This document shows, piece by piece, positions 2,512 to 31,928 of a DNA stretch of 39,464 nucleotides; position 1 is the first letter of the stretch, and each line of letters opens with the position of its first letter. The position numbers and the translations under genes were made by a program. The DNA is from Deinococcales bacterium (GTDB lineage Bacteria > Deinococcota > Deinococci > Deinococcales > JAAFIG01): positions 1-39,464 of the forward strand of contig JAYWGM010000020.1 in assembly GCA_043778225.1 (NCBI GenBank). The letters run 5' to 3'. Under the pieces are notes generated by a model. The model saw only the letters and a list, made by a program, of their open reading frames with translations. It ran no database searches and had not been told where the DNA came from.

Positions 2512-2555
2512 CGTATCGTTTTTATGTTATCATTATGGGCTTATGGAGGTTTCAC

Positions 2556-4982
2556 TTGTCAGAAGTTATCCCCGTTAATATCACCGATGAAGTCAAAGAT
2601 TCATTTTTGACTTACGCCATGTCCACGATTGTCGAACGTGCCTTGCCCGATGTGCGCGATGGCTTAAAGCCAGTTCAGAGGCGCATTTTGTACGCCATGC
2701 ACTCGGACTTAAATCTGCTCTCGACCCGCAAGCACTCAAAAAGCGCTGGTGTGGTCGGCGAAGTGATCAAAAAATACCACCCTCACGGCGATATGCCAAT
2801 TTACGAAGCGATGGTGCGCCTTGCCCAGTGGTGGAATTTACGCTATATGCTGGTGGACGGTCAGGGCAATTTTGGTTCGCTGGATGGCGACCCTGCCGCC
2901 GCCTACCGTTACACCGAAGCCCGTTTGACCAAAGCCGCCGAAACCATGCTCGAGGACATCGAAAAAGAAACCGTTTCTTTTCGCCCAAATTTTGATGAGT
3001 CACACCAAGAACCAACTGTTTTACCCGCCGCGTTTCCGTATATGTTGGTCAACGGTGCGGTTGGTATTGCGGTCGGTATGGCGACCAATATCCCGCCGCA
3101 CAACCTGACCGAAATCTGCAATGGATTGCTGGCAATTATCGCTAAGCCCGAAATTGAACTCGATGAACTGATGACCTATGTGACCGGTCCGGATTTTCCA
3201 ACCGGCGGACGACTCGGTAAAAAAGGCATCCGCGAAGCCTATGCGACCGGTCAAGGCAGCATTCGTTTACGTGGTAAAGCCCGAATCGAAGAAGTCAAAG
3301 GGCGCAGCCAGATTGTGATTACCGAAATTCCCTACCAAGTCAACAAAGAAAACTTTATCAAGACCATCAGCGCTTGTTATAAAGAAGGTAAAATTCCAGA
3401 CATCAGCGCCCTGCGCGATGAATCTGACCGCAAAGACCCGGTGCGAATTGTTCTCGAGCTCAAGCGTGGCACACTGCCCGATTTGGTCTTAAACCAGTTG
3501 TACAAGCACACCCAACTGCAAACCAGCTTTAACATTATTAACTTAGCGATTGTCAATGGTGCGCCTAAAGTGCTGCCGATTAAAGCCGCGATGGTGCATT
3601 ACCTTGACCACCGCAAAGTCGTGGTCACCAAGCGCACCGAGTACGACTTACGAAAAGCTCGAGCCAGAACCCATATTCTCGAGGGGCTGCTGGTGGCTTT
3701 GGACAACATTGACGAAGTGATTCGTCTGATTCGGGCTGCCCAGAGCGGCGCAGAGGCTCGAGATGCGCTGATGGTGCGTTTTGCGCTGTCCGAGCCGCAA
3801 TCGCAAGCCATTCTTGATATGCGCCTACAGACCTTGACGGGTTTATCTCGAGACCGCCTCAACGAAGAGTACCGCGAACTCCTGACCACAATTGGATTTT
3901 TAGAAGGGATTCTGGGCGACACAACCATTTTGTGGAACGAGATTATCAAAGAAATTACCAATCTGCGCGATAAATTTGGCGACGAACGCCGCACCATGAT
4001 TGCCGATTTATCCGAAGACATCACCAAAGAAGATTTAATTGCGGTCGAAGACATGGTGATTACCGTCACCAAGGGCGGCTACATGAAGCGCACGGCGCTC
4101 GAGGCATATCGTGTCCAAGCTCGGGCTGGGCGTGGCGCAAACTCGGGCAAACTGCGCGACGAAGACCTCAACACCAATTTGTTGGTTGGCAGCACCCACG
4201 ATTACTTGCTGTTTTTTACCGACAAGGGCAGAGTTTTCCGCGAAAAAATCTTTGATATTCCCGAAGCCGGACGCGATGCCAAAGGCGCTCATTTACGCAA
4301 CATTCTGCCTTTGCGCGACGACGAAAGCGTGGCTGGAATTTTAGACCTCAAAGACTTTAATGTGGCTGGCTCGTTGATTTTTTGCACCAAGCAAGGGATT
4401 ATCAAAAAGACCGAAATTGCTGACTACATCAACATTACTGCCGCAGGGCTGATTGCGATTAACCTACTCGAGAACGACCATTTAATCGAAGTCGCAGTCG
4501 TCAAACCGACCGAACAAGTCGTGCTGGCAACCCTAGACGGGCAAAGCATTCGTTTTAGCGAAGATGATGTTCGCGCCACTGGTCGCGCCACCCAAGGCGT
4601 GATTGGCATTCGCCTCAAGAAAGATGATGTTGTGGTCTCGATGAGCATTGTTCAACCCGACGACACTGGCGAATTATTGGCAGTTTCGGAAAATGGCTAC
4701 GGCAAACGCACCCCGATTTCTGAGTATCCACTTCAAGGACGTGGCGGACAAGGTGTGATTACCTTAAAAGTGACCGATAAAACTGGCAATCTGGTTTCGC
4801 TTGAGCGGGTTGGCGGCGACGAAGAACTGATGGTTCTGAGTGCCAATGGTGTGGCGATTCGCACCAGAGTCGAAGAAGTCTCGAGCTACGGGCGAAGCAG
4901 TCAAGGGGTCAAAGTGATGCGAATTGAAGACAAGGATAAAGTCATTCGTGCCTTTGCAATTCGCCAAGAGGAAACGTTATAA
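2556..4982 (+). CDS. gyrA: DNA gyrase subunit A
   Basis: [22 protein letters not shown], catalytic-Tyr region [10 protein letters not shown], GyrA-box-like QARAGRG and C-terminal pinwheel repeats; TTG start at 2556 after GGAGG. Confidence 0.97.
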
Positions 4983-22121: not shown

Positions 22122-22586
22122 TCAAAGTTCAGAGCCTAGCTTTGCCATTTTTAGAATGTGCTGGAAGTGCTTTTTTTCGATAGGCGTGACCGATAAGCGG
22201 TTGCCTTTACGCAGAATCAGCAGGGTCTCGAGTTCTGGTTCGGCACGCAAAGTATTGAGCTCGAGAAAGTGCAGGGCTTCTACAGGCTCGAGACAGATTT
22301 GAGACCAGCGTGGGTTCTCGAGCGGGCTTTTTGGGTCGTAATAATGGCTTTTTGGGTCAAATTGGAGTTGGTCTGGATGAGCGGTTTGGGTGATTCTGGC
22401 AACGCCAGCAATACCTGGTGGGTTGGTGCTGCTGTGATAAATCAGGGCTAAATCGCCGATTTCCATACTGCGGAGGTGATTGCGGGCGAGGTAATTACGG
22501 ATGCCATCCCATGGACTCGAGCCAAGGCGTACAAGGTCGGCATAGGAAAAAACATCGGGTTCGGTTTTTAAGAGCCAGTATTGCAC
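22122..22586 (-). CDS. EVE domain protein (Thy28-like)
   Basis: [35 protein letters not shown]...PRW, RLSVTP. Confidence 0.93.
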
Positions 22587-22743: not shown

Positions 22744-23088
22744 ATGGCAGGAGCAGCACCAGTTGTTAAGAAGCTAAAACGCAAGGAACGTAAGGTCATT
22801 AAGTCCAAGCGTCGTGGTTTAGCTCAAGAAAAGCGCCATCGTCAGAGTTTGAAACGTCGCACCGCCAACCGTGCCACCAAAAGCACGATTAAGACCTTTG
22901 TAAAAAAAGCCCTTGTTGCCAATAGTGAAGGTGCAGCCGAAGCAGCCACCTTAACCCAACGCGCCGAGAGTTTGATTGACAAAGCTGCAAAAGGTAGCGT
23001 CATGCACAAACGCACTGCGGCTCGGAAAAAAAGCCGTTTGGCAAAAGCAATTAACAAATCCAAAGCTGCCCTTCAAACGGCTGCATAA
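22744..23088 (+). CDS. rpsT: 30S ribosomal protein S20 with an extended basic N-terminus
   Basis: [51 protein letters not shown] before ATG 22744. Confidence 0.95.
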
Positions 23089-23108
23089 GCCCACGTTATT
23101 TTCTCAAG

Positions 23109-23139
23109 ACCCAACAGTTTAGGCTGTTGGGTTTTTTTT
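23109..23139 (+). terminator. Rho-independent terminator of rpsT
   Basis: ACCCAACAG-tttagg-CTGTTGGGT followed by a T tract. Confidence 0.85.
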
Positions 23140-23200
23140 GCCCACAGGTTTTATGGGGTTTTTCGCAACGCAAATTGAAAAGCACGGTATGATGAGGTAC

Positions 23201-23229
23201 TTGACACATTTATGTTATTAACGTATTCT
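23201..23229 (+). promoter_or_regulatory. Sigma70-type promoter with an embedded RDRM-like (DdrO) operator
   Basis: TTGACA (23201-23206), 17 nt, TATTCT (23224-23229); TTATGTTATTAACGTAT at 23210-23226 fills the spacer and overlaps the -10. Confidence 0.75.
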
Positions 23230-23269
23230 TTTTGGCAGCCCAGCAGCCAGACATCATAAAGGAAACCCC

Positions 23270-24568
23270 GTGACCCAACTTAGTGCCACTCAAATCCTTG
23301 CTCTTGCCCCAGATGCTTCTTCGGCTTCAAGCGGCAAAGCCTTAAACAACACCAGCAAATGGAAAAACCTAGGCTCGAGCCAAACTGCCTTTTGGGGCGA
23401 ATGCCAAGGCAGCGGCAAAGACCCGTACCGCACCAGCGTGGATATAGCTGATTACACTGCCAAATGCAGTTGCCCAAGCCGAAAATTTCCTTGTAAACAC
23501 GGCATTGGTCTGATGCTGATGAACGCCGCCAAACCACTCGAGAGCGGTACACCGCCCGACTGGGTAAGCACTTGGCTCGAGGGCAGACAAAAACGTGCCG
23601 AAGCCAAGACCGCCCCGCAAGCCATCCCAGAAGACCTCGAGAAAGCTGCCAAGGCAACTGCCAAACGCCTCGCTTCCCGCGAGAAAAAAGTCGAAGCTGG
23701 ACTCGAGGAATTGGGCTTATGGTTATCTGACCAAATCAAAAATGGCGTGAGCAATGCACCAAGTCAGCCCTACAGTTATTGGGAATCTGTGGCAGCCCGC
23801 TTGGTGGATGCCCAAGCACCCGGACTGGCGCGAATGGTACGCGAATTGCCAGACGCAGCCGTCGGCGGCTGGCTGCTCGAGGCACTGGCACGTTTGCACT
23901 TAATTGTGAATGCCTACAGCCGACTCGAGACGTTAAGCCCAAGCATCCAAGCCGATGTCCGAGCCGCCGTTGGTTTTACCCAAGATAAAGCCGAATTGCT
24001 GCAACAAAACCCGCCCAAAGCCGTTTGGACAAGCCTTGGGCAAATAAGCGTTCAAGAGGATAATTTACGGGTTCGCCGCACTTACCTCGAGCATATAGAA
24101 AGTCGAGAAGTGGCGTTGTTGCTGGATTTTGCGATCAACAGCCAACCGATGGCGGTTGGTCTGCCAATTGGCGTGACCCTCGAGACCGAACTGATTTATT
24201 ACCCAAGCCATCTGCCTTTACGAGCGATTCTCAAACCAGATGTCAAAATCCTCGAGAACCTCAGCGAACTGCGTGGTTATAGCATTCAAACTGCCCTCGA
24301 GCAGTACGCAACAGCACTGTCAAAATGTCCGTGGCTTGAGCGTTACCCGATGTGCTTGACGGATGTGACTGTACAATTTGATGGTACAAATTGGCAAATT
24401 CAGGACTCGAGTCAGATGCTCCCGATTCAAACCGATGCTGATTGGTACATCCTCGCACTCTCAGGTGGGCATCCAGTCCAAATTTTTGGTGAATACGATG
24501 GCAAAACCTTTGTACCTTTGACCTTAGCCAGCAACGGCAGTATCTACACCCTCGCAAGGCAATCATGA
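23270..24568 (+). CDS. SWIM zinc-finger protein (YehQ/DdrT-like)
   Basis: CSCPSRKFPCKH SWIM motif, WGECQGSGKDPY, AARLVDAQAPGLA; AAAGGA RBS. Confidence 0.88.
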   Translation: MTQLSATQILALAPDASSASSGKALNNTSKWKNLGSSQTAFWGECQGSGKDPYRTSVDIADYTAKCSCPSRKFPCKHGIGLMLMNAAKPLESGTPPDWVSTWLEGRQKRAEAKTAPQAIPEDLEKAAKATAKRLASREKKVEAGLEELGLWLSDQIKNGVSNAPSQPYSYWESVAARLVDAQAPGLARMVRELPDAAVGGWLLEALARLHLIVNAYSRLETLSPSIQADVRAAVGFTQDKAELLQQNPPKAVWTSLGQISVQEDNLRVRRTYLEHIESREVALLLDFAINSQPMAVGLPIGVTLETELIYYPSHLPLRAILKPDVKILENLSELRGYSIQTALEQYATALSKCPWLERYPMCLTDVTVQFDGTNWQIQDSSQMLPIQTDADWYILALSGGHPVQIFGEYDGKTFVPLTLASNGSIYTLARQS

Positions 24569-26121
24569 ACGACCTTCGCGCCATCACCTCGAGTGCGCTC
24601 TTAGGCACTGAACGCAGCCCCTTGGGTGTTCTGGAGCATCCCCAACTTGAACAGGCACGCATAAGCCTCGAATCTCGAGGCAGTCCAGCCACCCTGCTTG
24701 GCGTGGCAATGTTGGCTTTTAACATGGCTCGAGCCGGTCAGCCAGCCAACTCGAGTCTGGGCAGTCTTGCCCCCGCCAGTCCTGATGTTCGAGCGGCAGT
24801 GCCTGAACTTGCCAGTGCGCGATTGGAACAGTTACTCGATTCACAAAAACAATTGCTGCCCGAATGGCTGGAGATGATTGCCCAAGCTGGTTATCGTCTG
24901 CCACATACAAATTTAGTGCAGTTACTCAACCAAGCCCAGCATAGCCCAGACCTCCGAGATGGCATTCGAGCCGTGCTGGACTCGAGAGGACAATGGTTAG
25001 CCAAGCAAAACCCCGCTTGGGCTTGGGCAGTCGGCGACACTGGTAGCACTGAATCGACACTCGAGACTTGGGAAACAGGTTCTAGGGCGGCTCGAGTTGT
25101 GGCATTACGCAGCCTCCGTGCCGAGCAACCAGCCCAAGCCCGAGCCTTACTCGAGGCGGTCTGGAAAAGCGAAGTTGCCGAGGAACGCAAAGCCTTTTTA
25201 GCCGAATTCGAGGCTGGCATTTCGAGTGCCGACGAACCTTTTTTGGAGTCTTGTTTAGATGACCGCAGCAAAGATGTCCGCCAAATTGCGGCTGGGTTGC
25301 TGGCAAAATTACCGAACAGTGCTTTTGTCGAACGGATGGTTGCTCGAGGCGAAAGCCTGCTGAATCGAGGTAAGAAAAAAGGCTTGATTGCGCTCAGTAC
25401 ACCCGAACTGGAAATCACCCTGCCCGAATGGAGTAGCGACCTTGGGCGCGATGGCATCGAGAAAAAAACGCCCTACTATTCTGGCGGCGACAAAGCCTAT
25501 TGGTTGGAACGGATTATCTCGAGTATCCCGATAGAAACATGGGAAATTCACTTGCGACTCGAGCCAAAAGAAATTTTGAAATTGCTGCCAAAAGACTGGC
25601 GCAACACCATCCAGACTGGTTTTGTCAATGCCATCAGCACATATCCAAACCCAACGTGGATTGAGGCATTGCTTAATTTCGACAGCAAATTTATGGAAAA
25701 CGCTGTTTTGATGAACACCCTACCGCTCGAGCAACGTGAAAAACGTGTCAGATACTTTATTTTTGCTAAGGAAAACACAAAATTTGACTGGCTTGCTTGG
25801 ATGAACCACCCGTGGAGTCTTGAATTTACTCGAGAATGTTTTGAATGGCTCGGTCAGCTTGGGCAGAAAATACTGGCTGGCAAAAACGAGTATCACAACA
25901 CCAGCCAAATTGCTTATCTTGCCAACCCAGAAATCACACTGCATTGGCACGACCCAAAACATTATCCGCACTGGACAGCCTTCCAACAAAAAACCAGTGG
26001 TTTTTTGCCAGACGAAAAAAATCGTCAGCATTATCAGGTGACCTATCACCTTGAGCAAATCAAAACCCTGACCACCACCCTCGAGACCCGCGCTGCGATG
26101 CGAAAGGAAATTTTATCATGA
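24565..26121 (+). CDS. DUF5691-like helical (HEAT-repeat-like) protein
   Basis: ALLGTER, RGQWLAKQNPAWAW, DEPFLESCLDDRSKDVRQIAAGLL; ATGA overlaps at both ends. Confidence 0.7.
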   Translation: MNDLRAITSSALLGTERSPLGVLEHPQLEQARISLESRGSPATLLGVAMLAFNMARAGQPANSSLGSLAPASPDVRAAVPELASARLEQLLDSQKQLLPEWLEMIAQAGYRLPHTNLVQLLNQAQHSPDLRDGIRAVLDSRGQWLAKQNPAWAWAVGDTGSTESTLETWETGSRAARVVALRSLRAEQPAQARALLEAVWKSEVAEERKAFLAEFEAGISSADEPFLESCLDDRSKDVRQIAAGLLAKLPNSAFVERMVARGESLLNRGKKKGLIALSTPELEITLPEWSSDLGRDGIEKKTPYYSGGDKAYWLERIISSIPIETWEIHLRLEPKEILKLLPKDWRNTIQTGFVNAISTYPNPTWIEALLNFDSKFMENAVLMNTLPLEQREKRVRYFIFAKENTKFDWLAWMNHPWSLEFTRECFEWLGQLGQKILAGKNEYHNTSQIAYLANPEITLHWHDPKHYPHWTAFQQKTSGFLPDEKNRQHYQVTYHLEQIKTLTTTLETRAAMRKEILS

Positions 26122-27194
26122 GCCAAGAACTACGCCAACACGCCGAACAAGAATTTGCCCACGAACTCGAGGCGCTGAGTCAACTCGACGATAAGCCCAA
26201 ACCGCCAAATTGGAAACTCAGCCCGTGGGCGGTAATTCAATACCTGATGGGCGGTAAGGTTGGTAAACTCGAGATAAAACCTAAGTACATTGGTAGCCAA
26301 CGCCTGATGGAAATTGCCGTCGCAACCCTCGCCACCGACCGTGCATTGTTGCTTTTGGGCGTACCCGGCACAGCCAAAAGTTGGGTCTCTGAACACCTTG
26401 CCGCTGCTATCAGTGGCGACAGCACCTTGCTGGTTCAGGGTACTGCTGGCACATCCGAAGAAGCGATTCGCTATGGCTGGAACTATGCCGAGTTACTCTC
26501 CAAAGGACCGAGTATCAAAGCAATCGTCGAAAGCCCAATTATTCGCGCCATGAAAACTGGCACAATTGCACGGCTCGAGGAACTGACCCGCATCCCAAGT
26601 GATGTTCAAGACGCACTGATTACGGTATTAAGCGAAAAAACCCTGCCGATACCCGAACTGAACACCGAAGTCCAAGCCAAAAAAGGTTTTAACATGATTG
26701 CCACTGCCAACAATAAAGACCGTGGCGTAAATGAACTCTCGAGCGCCTTAAAGCGCCGCTTTAATACCGTTATTTTACCTGTACCAGACAATATGGACGA
26801 AGAAATTCGGATTGTCCAAACAAGGGTTGCCGACCTCGGTCGCGCCCTCGAGTTACCCGCCCAAACCCCAGCGCTCGAGGAAATTCGGCGGGTGGTGCAG
26901 GTTTTTAGGGAACTGCGCGATGGCAAAACCACAGATGGCAAAACCAAACTCAAAAGCCCAAGCGGCACATTAAGCACCGCCGAAGCCATCGGGGTAATTA
27001 ACCAAGGGCTGGCATTGGCAGCCCACTTTGGCGATGGGGTACTGCGGGCGGGCGATGTCGCCTCGAGTTTAATTGGGGCGATTATTAAAGACCCCATACA
27101 AGACCGTGTGGTGATGCTTGAGTACCTCGAGACGGTGGTCAAAGAACGCGATGGTTGGAAAGATATTTACCGCGCCTGCCGCGACGTGGTGTGA
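26118..27194 (+). CDS. MoxR-type AAA+ ATPase (YehL-like)
   Basis: Walker A variant GVPGTAKS, YGWNYA, Walker B LEELTR, ATANNKDRGVNELSSALKRRFN, LSTAEAI. Confidence 0.9.
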   Translation: MSQELRQHAEQEFAHELEALSQLDDKPKPPNWKLSPWAVIQYLMGGKVGKLEIKPKYIGSQRLMEIAVATLATDRALLLLGVPGTAKSWVSEHLAAAISGDSTLLVQGTAGTSEEAIRYGWNYAELLSKGPSIKAIVESPIIRAMKTGTIARLEELTRIPSDVQDALITVLSEKTLPIPELNTEVQAKKGFNMIATANNKDRGVNELSSALKRRFNTVILPVPDNMDEEIRIVQTRVADLGRALELPAQTPALEEIRRVVQVFRELRDGKTTDGKTKLKSPSGTLSTAEAIGVINQGLALAAHFGDGVLRAGDVASSLIGAIIKDPIQDRVVMLEYLETVVKERDGWKDIYRACRDVV

Positions 27195-27195
27195 A

Positions 27196-29400
27196 ATGAG
27201 CTTACATTTTTTTGGTATTCGCCATCACGGCGCTGGTGGTGCAAGGTCGTTGTTGCGTGCTTTGCGTGTTCTCGAGCCAGATTGTGTGCTGGTCGAAGGT
27301 CCGCCCGATGCCAACGATTTACTGCCACTTTTGGCTCATACCGCCATGACCCCGCCAATTGCGCTGTTGCTGTACGCCAAAGACGACCCCTCGAGAGCCG
27401 TCTACTATCCATTTGCGGTCTTTAGTCCAGAATTCCAAGCCATACGCTATGCCCTCGAGGCACAAGTCACGGTGCGTTTTATGGATTTACCCCAAACCCA
27501 TCAATTAACCGTAGAAGCGGGCGAGGCAAGCTGTCTTGACCCTACAGTTGGTGATGATGTTGCCGCCGACCCGCTAGGTTGGTTGGCAAAAGCCGCAGGT
27601 TTTTCCGATGGCGAGCGCTACTGGGAATATCTGGTCGAACAGCGCCGCTCGGACGAAGATGTCTTTGCGGCAATTCTCGAGGCGATGACGGCACTGCGGC
27701 TCGAGTCAAAGACCCTCGAGCTACGCGAAGCCCAGCGCGAGGCGTTTATGCGCCAAAGCATTCGCAAAGCCCAAAAGGACGGTTTCAAAAAAATCGCGGT
27801 GGTCTCTGGTGCATGGCATTCGCCAGTCTTGGATAGTGACCAATTCGATGCCAAAGCCGATGCAGCCTTGCTCGAGGGTCTGCCAAAAACGGCGGTCTCG
27901 AGTACCTGGATTCCATGGACACACGGCAGACTGGCTCGCTCGAGTGGTTACGGCGCGGGCATTACCAGTCCGGGTTGGTATGCTCACCTGTGGGAACTCC
28001 AAGACTCGAGTTCGCGCAATGTGATTACCCACTGGTTGACCAAAGTGGCGCATTTGCTGCGAGCCGAGGATTTACCCGCCTCGAGTGCCAGTGTGATTGA
28101 AGCCGTGCGTTTAGCCGAAGCCTTGGCTGCCTTGCGTGGTTCGCCAATGCCGGGTTTGGAGGAATTAAACGAGGCTTCTCGAGCTTTGTTCGCGTGGGAT
28201 TCTGATTTGCCACTCCAGCTCATTGCCGAGAAACTGATTCTGGCAGAAACCCTTGGGGCTGTGCCGCCCGAAACCCCGACTGTGCCGTTGGTGCGCGACC
28301 TCGAGGCGGAACAAAAACGGTTGCGCTTTAAGCCCGATGCAGTTGCTAAAAATGTGGAATTTGATTTGCGTTCCGCCAATGATTTGGAGCGCAGTGTCTT
28401 GCTGCATCGGCTGCGCTTGTTGGGTGTGCCGTGGGGCGAGGTTATCGGCTCGAGTGGCAAAGGAACATTTAAGGAGGGCTGGCGGGTTCAGTGGCATCCC
28501 GAATTTGCGGTGCGGCTGATCGAAGCTGCCATGTTTGGTTCGAGTGTGTTGGAAGCCGCCACCCAGAGAGTCTTAGAAATCTCGAGTCTAACCAGTCATT
28601 TACCAACGCTTACAAAATTACTCGATGATATTTTGCTCTCGAACTTGCCCAATGCCGCCCAACTCGTGATGACGCGGCTCGAGGCAGCTGCCGCCCAAGA
28701 CGCGGACATTAACCACCTGATGCAGGCAATTCCGCCACTTGCAAGGGTGCAACGTTACGGCAGTGTGCGGCAACTCGATACAACCATGCTGGCTGGTGTT
28801 GTCTCTGGGCTGGTGCTGCGGGTCTGCGTTGGGCTACCGAATGCCTGTGTCAGTTTATCGGACGAGGCTGCGCTCGAGTTATTTCCGCATTTTTTCGAGT
28901 TGCACAGTGCTATTGCCACCCTCGAGCAACCCGATTTACTGACCTCGTGGCGCGAAGTGCTGGCAGTCTTAGCCGTGCAGCACAACCTGCATGGTTTAAT
29001 TGCTGGTCGAGCCTCGAGATGGCTGCTTGAAGCTGGTGTTTACAGTGCCACAACCACCGCCAATCGTTTATCGTATGTGGCTGGCGTTGCCACCGACCCA
29101 AACGAAGTGGCAGCTTGGACAGATGGTTTTCTGCGTGGTTCGGGCTTAGTCTTGGTTCACGACGATGCACTTTTTGGCGTGCTGGATTCATGGGTGCAGC
29201 ACCTCACCCCCGAGGCGTTTATTGCCATTCTGCCCCTGATGCGCCGTACCTTCTCGAGTTTTGAAGAAGCCGAAAAACGCGACATTGGTCAGAAAGTCAA
29301 AACCCCAAGGCAGCGACTCACGTCTCGAGCCGCCCAAAACCTAGATGTTTCTCGAGCCGAAAAAGTCATTCCGCTGATTGCCCAAATGCTAGGCATTTAA
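27196..29400 (+). CDS. DUF5682/YehM-like protein (putative metal-dependent hydrolase N-terminus)
   Basis: FGIRHHG, VLVEGPPD, YYPFAVFSPE, REAFM, GAWH, SGYGAG; start ATG 27196, 1 nt after the ATPase stop. Confidence 0.8.
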   Translation: MSLHFFGIRHHGAGGARSLLRALRVLEPDCVLVEGPPDANDLLPLLAHTAMTPPIALLLYAKDDPSRAVYYPFAVFSPEFQAIRYALEAQVTVRFMDLPQTHQLTVEAGEASCLDPTVGDDVAADPLGWLAKAAGFSDGERYWEYLVEQRRSDEDVFAAILEAMTALRLESKTLELREAQREAFMRQSIRKAQKDGFKKIAVVSGAWHSPVLDSDQFDAKADAALLEGLPKTAVSSTWIPWTHGRLARSSGYGAGITSPGWYAHLWELQDSSSRNVITHWLTKVAHLLRAEDLPASSASVIEAVRLAEALAALRGSPMPGLEELNEASRALFAWDSDLPLQLIAEKLILAETLGAVPPETPTVPLVRDLEAEQKRLRFKPDAVAKNVEFDLRSANDLERSVLLHRLRLLGVPWGEVIGSSGKGTFKEGWRVQWHPEFAVRLIEAAMFGSSVLEAATQRVLEISSLTSHLPTLTKLLDDILLSNLPNAAQLVMTRLEAAAAQDADINHLMQAIPPLARVQRYGSVRQLDTTMLAGVVSGLVLRVCVGLPNACVSLSDEAALELFPHFFELHSAIATLEQPDLLTSWREVLAVLAVQHNLHGLIAGRASRWLLEAGVYSATTTANRLSYVAGVATDPNEVAAWTDGFLRGSGLVLVHDDALFGVLDSWVQHLTPEAFIAILPLMRRTFSSFEEAEKRDIGQKVKTPRQRLTSRAAQNLDVSRAEKVIPLIAQMLGI

Positions 29401-29426
29401 CCGTAGGGTTTGCCATGGCAAACCCT
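29401..29426 (+). repeat. GTAG-type REP-like palindrome
   Basis: CCGTAG GGTTTGCC-AT-GGCAAACC CT immediately after the stop codon; same CCGTAGGG head as the element at 19757. Confidence 0.55.
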
Positions 29427-29464
29427 GTGACCTGCAAATCCCATCACCAAAAGGAGTCTAAATC

Positions 29465-30130
29465 ATGTCCCTGAAATCCCAAATCCCAGCATCGTGGCAA
29501 GCCGCTCTCGAGCCAGAATTCTCTAAGCCGTACATCGCAAAACTCGAGGCATTTCTCGAGACTGAACGAGCTGCACATCAAGTCTTCCCGCCACAATCAG
29601 AAGTTTTTTCGGCGCTCGAGTTTACGCCATTTGAGGCGGTGCGGGTGCTGGTGGTCGGTCAAGACCCGTATCACGATGCTGGTCAGGCGCATGGCTTGGC
29701 GTTTTCGGTGCAGCGTGGAACAAAAATCCCGCCAAGTCTGGTCAATATGTACAAGGAACTCGAGTCGGATTTGGCTGTGCCAAGGGCTAAGCATGGTTTT
29801 CTCGAGTCGTGGGCGCGGCAGGGTGTTTTGATGCTCAATACAGTTTTGACAGTTCGGGCGCACGAGCCAGCTTCGCATAAAGGCAAAGGTTGGGAAAACC
29901 TGACCGATGCGATAATTAAAGCGGTCAGTGCTAAGCCCGAACCTGTTGTTTTTGTTTTGTGGGGCGCTCATGCTCAGAAGAAACTCGAGTTAATTGATCT
30001 TAAAAAGCACACGGTTTTGCAGAGCGCTCATCCTTCGCCGTTATCGGCTCGGAATGGATTTTTTGGTTCTAAGCCATTCTCAAGCATTAACGCGGTTTTG
30101 GAAAGCCCAATTGACTGGAGTCTCGAGTGA
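29465..30130 (+). CDS. ung: Uracil-DNA glycosylase, family 1
   Basis: GQDPYH, QAHGLAFSV, PPSLVN, QGVLMLNTVLTV, LWG, HPSPLS; AAGGAG RBS. Confidence 0.97.
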   Translation: MSLKSQIPASWQAALEPEFSKPYIAKLEAFLETERAAHQVFPPQSEVFSALEFTPFEAVRVLVVGQDPYHDAGQAHGLAFSVQRGTKIPPSLVNMYKELESDLAVPRAKHGFLESWARQGVLMLNTVLTVRAHEPASHKGKGWENLTDAIIKAVSAKPEPVVFVLWGAHAQKKLELIDLKKHTVLQSAHPSPLSARNGFFGSKPFSSINAVLESPIDWSLE

Positions 30131-31308
30131 CCCTCGAGTCTGAGCGTTTGCGCCGTTGGCGGTTGCTGTTGGGTAGTGCTGCCGATGAGTCTTGTGGTGC
30201 GTGCAGTGCCTCGGATGCTCGGATTGACCTTGCGCTCGAGTCTTTGTATGGCGATGGTGACTCAAATATGTCGCCCGAAGACAAAGCCAAAAACCGCAAC
30301 AATGTTGGCAAGGGTAAATCCCAACCTAAAGTCGCTCGTTGGCTTGGCGACATCCGCGAATTTTTCCCCAGCAGTGTGGTGCGGGTGATGCAGCGTGATG
30401 CCTTTGAGCGCCTTGGCTTAAAAAGAATGCTGCTCGAGCCAGAGATGATGGAAGCTGTTACTCCAGATGTGCATATGGTCAGCACACTCTTGGCGCTAAA
30501 AAACATCATGCCGCAAAAAGCCAAAGAAACCGCACGGCTGATTGTGCGAAAAGTGGTCGAAGACCTCGAGAAAAAACTTGCCGAAAAAACCCGTCAGGCA
30601 ATTACAGGCAGCCTAAACCGTGCGATTCGTAACCGTCGCCCAAAGCACACCGAAATGGATTGGAACAGAACCATTCGGGCAAACCTCAAGCATTACCAAC
30701 CCGATTATCAGAGCATTGTGCCAGAAATCAAAATTGGTTTTGGGCGTAAACGCTCGAGCCTGCGCGACATTATTTTGTGCCTTGACCAGAGCGGTTCAAT
30801 GGGTTCGAGTGTGGTCTATGCTGGTGTTTTTGGGGCAGTCTTGGCAAGCCTCCCTGCGGTGCGAACTCGAGTCGTGGTGTACGACACGGCAGTCGTGGAT
30901 TTAACGGCAGAACTTCAAGACCCTGTGGATGTGTTGTTTGGCACACAACTTGGTGGCGGCAACGACACCCCTCGGGCTTTGGATTACTGCGCGGGCTTAC
31001 TCGAGAAACCCGAGGACACGATTTTTATTCTGATTTCGGATTTGTACGAAGGTGGCGGCAGTGCCGCAATGCTCGCTAAACTCGAGGCGTTTGTGGCGGC
31101 TGGCGTGACGGTTATTTCGTTGCTGGCGCTGTCCGACGACGGCAGACCGAGTTACGATGTCCAAAATGGTGCGGCGCTGGCAAAGATGGGCGTACCTGTG
31201 TTTGCTTGTACCCCAGACCTTTTCCCCGAGATGATGGCGGCAGCGATTTCGCGGCGCGATATTTCACAGTGGGCTGCCAGCGTTGATATTGTCACGACTC
31301 GAGCCTAA
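30127..31308 (+). CDS. VWA domain protein (CoxE/YehP-like)
   Basis: RRWRLLLG, RWLGDIREFFP, MIDAS DQSGSM, QLGGGND, LISDLYEGG; GTGA overlap with ung. Confidence 0.9.
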   Translation: MTLESERLRRWRLLLGSAADESCGACSASDARIDLALESLYGDGDSNMSPEDKAKNRNNVGKGKSQPKVARWLGDIREFFPSSVVRVMQRDAFERLGLKRMLLEPEMMEAVTPDVHMVSTLLALKNIMPQKAKETARLIVRKVVEDLEKKLAEKTRQAITGSLNRAIRNRRPKHTEMDWNRTIRANLKHYQPDYQSIVPEIKIGFGRKRSSLRDIILCLDQSGSMGSSVVYAGVFGAVLASLPAVRTRVVVYDTAVVDLTAELQDPVDVLFGTQLGGGNDTPRALDYCAGLLEKPEDTIFILISDLYEGGGSAAMLAKLEAFVAAGVTVISLLALSDDGRPSYDVQNGAALAKMGVPVFACTPDLFPEMMAAAISRRDISQWAASVDIVTTRA

Positions 31309-31928
31309 AAACAGGCGCGACCAACTCGCAACACGGTTGCGCCTTGGGCAATCGCCAGTTCTAAATCGTCCGACATTCCCATGCTCAGATGCTCGAGTCC
31401 AAGCTGGTCGCGGAGTTTTCGCAGCCCGCTAAAAGCCAATTGGGCTAATTCTAAGTTTTGCGGCGCAACCGTCATCAAGCCACGCACATTCAAACCCAAG
31501 TCTCGAGCAATTGCCAATAGTTCGGCAGCTTGGTCTGGCGCAACGCCGTGTTTTTGGGCTTCAAAACCCATGTTAATTTCTAAAAGTAAATCTGGAATGC
31601 GCTCCCAAGTCTGGCTGCGCTTGGCAATTTCCTCGAGTAAGCGTGGGCTATCGATGCTGTGAATCATACTAAAGCCAGCGCAGAACTTGACTTTATTGGT
31701 TTGCAGATGCCCAATTAAATGCCACTCGAGATTTGGTTCTGCCTCGAGTTTGGGTAGGGCTTCCTGAATGCGGTTTTCGCCAAGGATGCCATGACCATGG
31801 GCTAAAACAGCCGTCTGGATTTCTGATAAAGAATGCCCTTTGGTGACAGCAATCAGTTTGACCTCTTTGGGGTCGCGGTTGGCGGCTTGGCAGGCGGTTT
31901 TGATGCGGGTGAGTACGTCTTGAAGCAT
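31305..31928 (-). CDS. yggS: YggS-family PLP homeostasis protein
   Basis: LIAVTK, GENRIQE, WHLIGHLQTNK, GLMT, LSMGMSDD, VRVG-like end. Confidence 0.93.
   Translation of the reverse strand: MLQDVLTRIKTACQAANRDPKEVKLIAVTKGHSLSEIQTAVLAHGHGILGENRIQEALPKLEAEPNLEWHLIGHLQTNKVKFCAGFSMIHSIDSPRLLEEIAKRSQTWERIPDLLLEINMGFEAQKHGVAPDQAAELLAIARDLGLNVRGLMTVAPQNLELAQLAFSGLRKLRDQLGLEHLSMGMSDDLELAIAQGATVLRVGRACF

Follow-up and report, generated by a model that had tools for sequence, protein, structure and literature searches.

A gene for a family-1 uracil-DNA glycosylase (UDG), ung, lies inside a six-gene operon of an uncultured bacterium of the Deinococcales. The operon occupies positions 23270-31308 of a stretch of 39,464 nucleotides, hereafter the window, which is contig C20 of a genome (G000) of 4.03 Mb in 107 contigs, 89% complete. 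Its six co-directional plus-strand genes were defined from a listing of open reading frames (ORFs) and by direct reading, and all six family assignments stand above the curated Pfam or NCBIfam cut-offs. The closest public relatives of its DUF5682 protein come from uncultured Deinococcales metagenome-assembled genomes (MAGs) and are 82-87% identical. The other five genes appear to form an operon of the ddrTUVWX type known from Deinococcus deserti. We lean towards the reading that ung is a lineage-specific accessory gene of this operon, co-expressed through the repressor DdrO, translationally coupled to the VWA gene that follows it, and providing damage-inducible uracil excision. The features concerned are as follows.

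23110-23144, plus strand: terminator-like hairpin with a T run, 3' of rpsT (ribosomal protein S20), listed site 23128-23144; upstream boundary of the operon
23201-23229, plus strand: sigma-70-type promoter, TTGACA (23201-23206), 17-nt spacer, TATTCT (23224-23229), scoring 10/12
23211-23225, strandless: radiation/desiccation response motif (RDRM, the DdrO operator) TATGTTATTAACGTA, within the promoter spacer and reaching into the -10 hexamer
23270-24568, plus strand: SWIM zinc-finger protein, 432 aa, ddrT-like first gene (PF04434, 26.4 bits, cut-off 19.6)
24565-26121, plus strand: DUF5691 protein, 518 aa (PF18944, 399.7 bits)
26118-27194, plus strand: MoxR-class AAA+ ATPase (AAA_5), 358 aa (PF07728, 129 bits)
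27196-29400, plus strand: DUF5682 protein, 734 aa (PF18934, 852 bits)
29403-29429, plus strand: hairpin resembling a repetitive extragenic palindrome (REP), GTAGGG..CCCTG, in the DUF5682-ung spacer, with a 9-bp stem and without a T tract
29465-30130, plus strand: family-1 uracil-DNA glycosylase (ung), 221 aa (NCBIfam equivalogs)
30127-31308, plus strand: VWA_CoxE protein, 393 aa, ddrX-like last gene (PF05762, 155.8 bits)

Gene order and junctions

The gene order, the common direction and the tight junctions that the initial annotation had described were confirmed by the ORFs and the sequence. The first two junctions of the operon are ATGA overlaps, at 24565-24568 between the SWIM and DUF5691 genes and at 26118-26121 between the DUF5691 and MoxR genes; a single nucleotide, the A at 27195, separates the TGA of the MoxR gene from the ATG of the DUF5682 gene; and a GTGA at 30127-30130 joins ung to the VWA gene, so that the GTG start of the latter overlaps the ung stop. 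The SWIM gene begins with a GTG preceded by an AAGGAA ribosome-binding site, which is kept in relatives, and its product carries the CxC...CxH motif at residues 66-77. The second gene had been called HEAT-like. HEAT matches were found below threshold only (E 0.04-0.33), and the family assigned is DUF5691 (400 bits); the product is probably a helical repeat protein. MoxR is 70-95% identical to the copies in relatives.

The window shares the ung-VWA overlap, CTCGAGTGA, with four public loci (L008, L011, L014, L028), L006 having ATGA in its place, and the conserved N-terminus of the VWA protein, ERLRRWRLLLG, starts exactly at the start codon of the overlap. The arrangement is common to two clades between which the DUF5682 proteins have 56% identity. 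Small genes lie between ung and the VWA gene in L005, L007, L009 (MazF-like), L012, G178 (DUF6348) and G181.

The junction on the other side of ung is not tight. A 64-bp spacer, 29401-29464, which the initial annotation had not mentioned, separates it from the DUF5682 gene and contains the REP-like hairpin and, directly before ung, a strong AAAGGAG ribosome-binding site. The whole 86-nt fold around the hairpin has an energy of -20.1 kcal/mol (z -1.1). No promoter-like site was found in the spacer, and no T tract follows the hairpin, whereas the nearby rpsT terminator has one. Hairpins with differing stems and GTAGGG/CCCTAC feet also occur 3' of the DUF5682 stop in L005, L006, L008, L011, L012 and L014, and a near-copy of the window hairpin lies elsewhere in the genome, at C52:42363. 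The possibility that the hairpin belongs to a large repeat family was considered and rejected, with 2 near-copies and 8 loosely similar GTAGGG..CCCTAC hairpins genome-wide.

The neighbours of the operon are housekeeping genes, namely those for S20, for a YggS-like protein and for purine nucleoside phosphorylase. The YggS-like gene is convergent with the operon at its downstream edge and overlaps the VWA stop. Beyond the upstream edge, an EVE-domain protein (159 bits) is encoded at 22122-22586 on the minus strand, just 5' of rpsT and opposite to it.

Promoter and operator

The promoter at 23201-23229 is the best promoter-like site within 23000-31600, and position 23201, with which the initial annotation began the operon, is the first base of its -35 hexamer. 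Bases 23211-23225 match the RDRM consensus TATGYYHTTARCRKA printed by Eugénie et al. 2021 (PMC8533742) at 15/15 positions. The motif is kept, with no or one mismatch, in all three close relatives for which upstream sequence exists (L005, L006, L008), and both promoter hexamers are kept in the same three although the flanks diverge. Among SWIM upstream regions from phyla other than Deinococcota, 0/15 carry a site of this type. Elsewhere in the genome, gyrA, ligA, an intein-bearing uvrB, ssb and ruvB are each preceded by an RDRM-like site with at most two mismatches, and so are a MutY-like gene and dnaE.

The regulatory proteins are encoded as well. DdrO, 129 aa, on C14, gives full-length matches to 6jq1 (E 1e-64) and 6rnx (E 5e-63), and IrrE, 261 aa, on C75, matches 8slm (E 6e-62) and 3dte (E 5e-59). 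No RDRM with at most two mismatches was found adjoining HTH_3 genes, and ddrO was identified through the solved DdrO structures instead. Predicted DdrO control of the operon promoter is well supported, because the site lies in the promoter and is conserved, other genes of the genome carry such sites, and both DdrO and IrrE are encoded. The DdrO-type operator of the initial annotation thus stands.

Two of the other RDRM-like sites can be described further. One, TATGTTATTTGCATA, with one mismatch, lies in the window at 2496-2510, 25 nt 5' of gyrA (2535-4982), from which a TerD gene at 1775-2350 diverges. The other, palindromic, at C32:79053, precedes uvrB (G000 C32:79127-82711, L128), a 1194-aa frame whose intein has a LAGLIDADG domain and HTH.

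The glycosylase gene

The ung product scores 311.7 (NF003589, cut-off 223), 308.9 and 274.2 (TIGR00628, cut-off 185.75) bits, all of them passing. Residues Q66, D67, P68 and Y69 and residues H189, P190, S191, P192 and L193 are invariant among 30 sequences; GQDPYH is the water-activating loop and HPSPLS the leucine loop of family-1 Ung. The search for a second genomic ung that had been proposed gave no other family-1 copy in G000, where the sole other UDG-superfamily gene, on C101, belongs to family 4. A single family-1 Ung was found in each of G000, G189, G194 and G178, and two in G181.

The hexamer CTCGAG occurs eight times in the 666 nt of ung, always in frame. Since it shares the extreme CTCGAG content of the genome, ung is, by its composition, a long-term resident of it. 

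The hexamer is itself unusual. With 24,877 copies in 4.03 Mb, one per 162 bp, it is the commonest hexamer and about 25 times as frequent as the per-hexamer mean, and other 6-bp palindromes are nearly missing genome-wide (GAGCTC 24, CTGCAG 13, GGATCC 24, CTTAAG 8, TCGCGA 36). The window (1-39464) has 250 copies and the operon (23270-31308) 73, of which 45 stand in frame as Leu-Glu in the six genes. Densities per kb are 6-9 in the clade of the window and the second MAG clade described below, 2.7-3.7 in G164 and G181, and about 0-0.4 in Deinococcus-type loci. CTCGAG resembles a highly iterated palindrome; a literature search on its over-representation found nothing relevant.

Distribution and descent of the ung insertion

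Around public relatives of DUF5682, 79 loci were surveyed. In nine of them (L005, L006, L007, L008, L009, L011, L012, L014, L028), all from Deinococcales or Deinococcota MAGs, ung is co-directional with and directly 3' of the DUF5682 gene, so that the arrangement is not peculiar to one genome. L004 and L015, likewise from Deinococcales, break off at a contig edge and are uninformative. No ung was found in the operon among the public loci of Actinomycetota, Cyanobacteriota, Chloroflexota, Acidobacteriota, Gemmatimonadota and Planctomycetota, and in a Thiothrix locus ung lies beyond the VWA gene on the opposite strand. Among the loci surveyed ung therefore belongs to the operon in one Deinococcota subclade only, which agrees with the initial view that it is not a normal member.

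A sample of the class comprised 201 Deinococci genomes, 69 of them with DUF5682 above the cut-off. By coordinates, ung lies at most 3 kb from the DUF5682 gene in five of the 69 (G000, G189, G194, G178, G181). In the loci of the largest sampled genus, presumed to be Deinococcus, the VWA gene follows the DUF5682 gene at 9-120 nt, without ung; compared with the window, their MoxR proteins are 70-80%, their DUF5682 proteins 46-52% and their VWA proteins 57-63% identical. Many Ungs of this genus are encoded elsewhere, in frames of about 770 aa, which agree with the PhrB-Ung fusion described in Deinococcus (PMC6300522).

A second clade of Deinococcales MAGs (L011, L012, L014, L028 with L179, L180; G201-G204) has the operon split over two contigs, with SWIM-DUF5691-MoxR on one and DUF5682-ung-VWA on another. 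A DUF5682 tree of 46 rows, built by a quick method, unites every ung-bearing operon in a single group, which has 14 rows and a Shimodaira-Hasegawa-like approximate likelihood-ratio (SH-aLRT) support of 92. This group also includes G164 and G184, whose operons are without ung, and the cut locus L015.

The Ung tree, of 41 rows and built by a careful method, follows host groups. The Ungs of the window clade and of the second MAG clade group together (97/90); their sister is the Ung of G164, which is of the operon type and is encoded away from the operon, and the operon Ung of G181 comes next (98/88). The operon Ung of G178, in contrast to these, falls among the Deinococcaceae Ungs. Approximately unbiased (AU) tests, whose groups were named after the tree had been seen and in which G178 is a long branch, reject the union of all operon Ungs (p 0.0005), also with G164 added (p 0.004). 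The Ung tree and the AU tests imply that ung came into the slot, or was replaced there, on two or more occasions and moved out of it on one or more. The phylogeny that had been proposed for this Ung thus gives two Ung lineages in the slot between the DUF5682 and VWA genes.

Variable junctions

Junction gaps were measured in about 105 operon loci (L004-L111, L143, L144). Insertions of 0.3-6 kb are frequent at the DUF5691-MoxR, MoxR-DUF5682 and DUF5682-VWA junctions. Co-directional gap ORFs had a Pfam family in 4 of 11 cases in one set and in 21 of 53 in another, and clustering of 80 gap ORFs left 46 singletons. The families found were these.

DUF4240, between DUF5682 and ung: L006/G189
DUF6348: 1 locus
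NADAR: 2 loci
Macro: 1 locus
GNAT: 1 locus
DUF4262: 1 locus
Uma2: 1 locus
SMI1/KNR4 (SUKH-1): 1 locus
DUF1963: 1 locus
Schlafen AlbA_2: 1 locus
LRR: 2 loci
LRV: 1 locus
FHA: 3 loci (cyanobacteria)
Receiver domain: 1 locus
MazF: 1 locus
AAA_21 with DUF4276: 1 locus

A further family, HUH nuclease-like, lies between the MoxR and DUF5682 genes in six loci of five lineages (L005, L006/L089, G164, G178, G181). It is confined to the subclade with the ung-type operon and is absent from the window. Its proteins have 181-254 aa, 40-54% identity, a weak match to Y1_Tnp, and the motifs MPNHxH (HUH) and WQxxY, as is usual for Y1/HUH nucleases of the kind of the REP-associated tyrosine transposases (RAYT). 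The genes lie at L006:6240-7004, L005:6321-7004, L088:3759-4304 (minus strand), L143:7782-8393 and L144:10975-11592 (minus strand).

The core proteins

An AlphaFold (AF2) model of DUF5682 built from 61 sequences has a predicted local distance difference test score (pLDDT) of 87.8 and a predicted template-modelling score (pTM) of 0.81. The whole 734-residue model was compared with 48,161 chains by VIA-align, and the Z values, which are middling, divide it into three regions. Residues 1-221 form an alpha/beta domain that matches 8bqs_DQ (Z 9.6, 180 residues aligned), ChaN 2g5g (Z 8.0, 157), HopBA1 5t09 (Z 7.6, 141) and 2qgm (Z 6.6, 156), which we take to be a Bcr135-like structure. Residues of about 273-349 form a helical bundle like an AAA lid, matching BchI 1g8p (Z 9.0, root-mean-square deviation 2.2 over 70 residues), dynein and ORC1, and those of about 400-734 an alpha-solenoid. 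In the alignment of the 61 sequences, R9, H10, H11, E34, E79, R181, E182, R186 and H208 are invariant. ChaN, HopBA1 and Bcr135 (3B55) are placed in the TIKI superfamily, with a set of two His and two Glu and a conserved Arg (PMC6254334). A Foldseek search of the full model against the PDB returned helical-repeat matches only, none at E ≤ 0.001; a profile of the N-terminal domain found nothing below E 0.1 among PDB sequences; and Pfam, with E up to 10, returned for this domain DUF5682 itself only. A TIKI/ChaN/erythromycin-esterase-like fold of the N-terminal domain is supported by the model. The initial annotation had taken DUF5682 for a candidate metallo-hydrolase, and because of the matches to TIKI members and the invariant His, Glu and Arg this is supported at the level of the predicted fold (TIKI/ChaN/EreA-like), the invariant residues being candidates for a catalytic set.

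The VWA protein's MIDAS motif (for metal-ion-dependent adhesion site), DQSGS at residue 220, is intact, with D220, S222 and S224 invariant among 47 sequences. In described MoxR/VWA systems an ATPase hexamer acts via a VWA adaptor, whose MIDAS binds an acidic patch of the client (PMC9976466, PMC7159879); the accessible part of one of these sources (Kaur 2020, PMC7159879) makes no mention of SWIM. None of the six proteins matched a PADLOC family at E up to 0.01.

Interpretation

Since variable genes are inserted at the junctions of this operon across phyla, ung is most readily understood as an accessory gene of it. The cell's own housekeeping ung would have been taken into the variable slot between the DUF5682 and VWA genes. 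DdrO, whose gene and site are both seen, would bind the operator over the -10 region; on DNA damage IrrE would cleave DdrO, and the six genes would be transcribed from the promoter at 23201-23229 as a single message, since neither an internal promoter nor a T-tract terminator was found. Translation of Ung would start at the strong ribosome-binding site in front of its gene, and that of the VWA protein would depend on coupling to the stop codon of ung, the outcome being damage-inducible uracil excision beside a core machine made of a MoxR ATPase ring, a VWA adaptor, a putative TIKI-fold DUF5682 hydrolase, the SWIM protein and the DUF5691 protein. The ung-VWA arrangement has been kept by selection, as seen in the overlap in two diverged clades and in the slot of G178, which holds an Ung of Deinococcaceae type. 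Ung not being an obligatory subunit, and an accessory of one subclade instead, is the best explanation of these observations. A lone ung behind a DdrO operator need not cost the cell its basal activity, because RDRM-like sites are present at housekeeping genes such as gyrA, ssb and uvrB as well.

Several observations weigh against this reading or narrow it. The exact consensus occurs twice in the 4.03-Mb genome where 0.83 matches are expected, a count that alone is not beyond chance and proves nothing, so that the weight of the RDRM evidence comes from the position of the site and its conservation. The ddrO gene itself has only a site with three mismatches, 182 nt upstream. No RDRM with at most two mismatches was found upstream of either operon half in the second MAG clade, and DdrO control is therefore not the whole reason why ung adjoins the DUF5682 and VWA genes. 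Two Ung lineages in one slot are as compatible with a functional tie as with a regulatory one. A transcript joining ung to the genes before it would have to run through the hairpin of the 64-bp spacer; a search for sequencing runs covering 27000-31400 returned no RNA run and four DNA runs, at least part of the stretch being present in three of these. Finally, because the genome is 89% complete, a second ung could sit in its unassembled part.

A functional tie would mean that Ung is a working partner of the machine, making or holding abasic sites while the complex acts on the intermediates, for example by freeing proteins trapped on DNA or breaking them down; in another version Ung would be a client that the VWA adaptor recruits. 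This is a tentative alternative that we consider unlikely, yet several findings speak for it: two clades retain the coupling between ung and the VWA gene, the adjacency persists with DUF5682 down to about 50% and Ung down to 54% identity, two Ung lineages occupy the same slot, and the same subclade has an HUH nuclease-like gene in the MoxR-DUF5682 slot. The modelled TIKI-type hydrolase fold of DUF5682 would suit such a role, as would the remodelling of clients by MoxR/VWA pairs through the MIDAS (PMC9976466), which is intact here. DUF5682, Ung and VWA genes also stay united in the clade with the split operon, for which no operator was detected, although this adds little, because the split left the downstream genes together by default. 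However, ung is missing from the operon in all loci outside Deinococcota and in the examined loci of Deinococcus proper, lies elsewhere in G164, and is uncoupled from the VWA gene by inserted small genes in L005, L007, L009, L012, G178 and G181. Furthermore, no fusion of Ung with VWA_CoxE, DUF5682 or any other operon protein was found in the best 120 of 1607 longer Ung homologues, which are HhH-GPD fusions or UDG alone. The fusions are metagenomic Ung-HhH-GPD (endonuclease III-like) proteins of about 450-800 aa, with Ung domains 56-67% identical to that of the window (P0001-P0120). The same facts bear on the claim of the initial annotation that two hints, the embedded ung and the operator, point independently to an action of the complex on damaged DNA. 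The observations do not establish this: ung belongs to one subclade, the corresponding slots of other loci contain many unrelated genes, ung has been relocated in G164, those best 120 of 1607 include no fusion of Ung with an operon protein, and no operator was detected in the split clade.

Two further explanations were weighed. That the adjacency is meaningless, with ung transcribed on its own, the hairpin halting transcription from upstream and the gene having landed in a permissive REP-like junction, seems to us highly improbable. The 64-bp spacer, the stable hairpin and the separate strong ribosome-binding site would fit it; REP-like hairpins and RAYT-like genes mark the junctions as insertion-prone, and many unrelated genes have been accepted there. 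Nevertheless, the spacer is without a promoter-like site and the hairpin without a T tract, and the arrangement is kept over deep divergence. The VWA gene, moreover, lacks a separate initiation region, its start lying within the ung stop, and therefore at least ung and the VWA gene would share a message. The least probable of the explanations considered is that the operon is a chassis with exchangeable cargo for conflicts with phages or toxins, in which Ung would remove uracil made by deaminase toxins or attack uracil-containing phage DNA. The slots do hold SUKH-1, DUF1963, DUF4262, NADAR (twice), Macro, Uma2, AlbA_2, MazF and AAA_21/DUF4276, families that are common in immunity and defence contexts. 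Against this, none of the six proteins matches PADLOC, the operon lies among housekeeping genes and is inherited with its hosts, ung is the only family-1 copy in the genome and its tree follows host groups, and the Deinococcus operon responds to radiation via IrrE and DdrO (PMC5552922).

A more far-reaching proposal concerns the machine itself. It may, though we regard this as a long shot, clear bulky or protein-linked DNA lesions, with the SWIM protein targeting the DNA, MoxR and VWA pulling the adduct and DUF5682 hydrolysing it. If this were true, the machine would be a functional analogue of the eukaryotic route of p97 with SPRTN/Wss1, and its slots would gather helpers specialised for particular lesions: in this lineage Ung, against uracil and abasic sites; in the same subclade the HUH nuclease-like protein; and elsewhere NADAR or Macro, against ADP-ribosylated bases. 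In that case the embedded ung would give the first indication of what class of substrate is handled by an operon that spans E. coli to Deinococcus.

ddrTUVWX/yehLMPQ is a widespread, strongly radiation-induced five-gene machine without known function, and a deeply conserved variant in which the main uracil glycosylase is coupled to the VWA gene offers a lead to its substrate. The embedded ung hints at a DNA-repair role of the machine, but it does not count as evidence that DNA is what the machine works on. The variable slots also caution against guesses of function from gene neighbourhood, as an embedded gene may be a passenger. Literature searches found no published account of ung within this operon, and a search on DUF5682, DUF5691 and yehLMPQ found no paper dealing with these. 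To the extent of the literature searched, the core of the operon is already known and the ung insertion is a new, well-defined variant.

Comparison with known systems

The likeness to the TIKI/TraB/EreA/ChaN superfamily lies in the predicted fold of the DUF5682 N-terminal domain, which is alpha/beta with a parallel sheet at its core like that of ChaN, HopBA1 and Bcr135, and in its invariant His, Glu and Arg. Unlike the members of that superfamily, this domain has no sequence-level Pfam or PDB match to them and is fused to an AAA-lid-like bundle and an alpha-solenoid.

NorQ/NorD, CbbQ/CbbO, RavA/ViaA and CoxD/CoxE share with the window an AAA_5 ATPase and a VWA protein with an intact MIDAS, and by analogy the common action to be expected is ATP-driven remodelling of a VWA-bound client. 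The window adds the SWIM, DUF5691 and DUF5682 proteins, and no metal-centre enzyme is encoded nearby.

The initial annotation had equated the core with YehQ/L/M/P and with ddrTUVWX, and both parts of this are borne out, by the E. coli annotation and the alignment of YehM (28% identity to the window DUF5682 over 586 aa, E 2e-39) and by the published description of the D. deserti operon. The yehL-yehM-yehP-yehQ cluster of E. coli K-12 likewise unites MoxR, DUF5682, VWA and SWIM genes. In contrast to the window it has the SWIM gene last, no DUF5691 annotated, DUF4132 genes upstream, and neither ung nor RDRM.

The closest counterpart is ddrTUVWX of D. deserti (Deide_18730 to Deide_18690), described and named by Blanchard et al. 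2017 (PMC5552922) as five genes, highly radiation-induced in an IrrE-dependent manner and preceded by an RDRM, of which the first codes for a SWIM and the last for a VWA CoxE-like protein. A review records ddrTUVWX for 7 of 11 Deinococcus species and lists Ung apart from it (PMC6300522). The window matches this description in its same five core genes with SWIM first and VWA last, in the RDRM at the promoter, and in a host that encodes DdrO and IrrE. Judged by its genes and its promoter, the operon is predicted to be of the ddrTUVWX type and a member of the DdrO/IrrE radiation-desiccation regulon; it differs from that of D. deserti in having a sixth gene, ung, which lies between genes four and five and overlaps the fifth.

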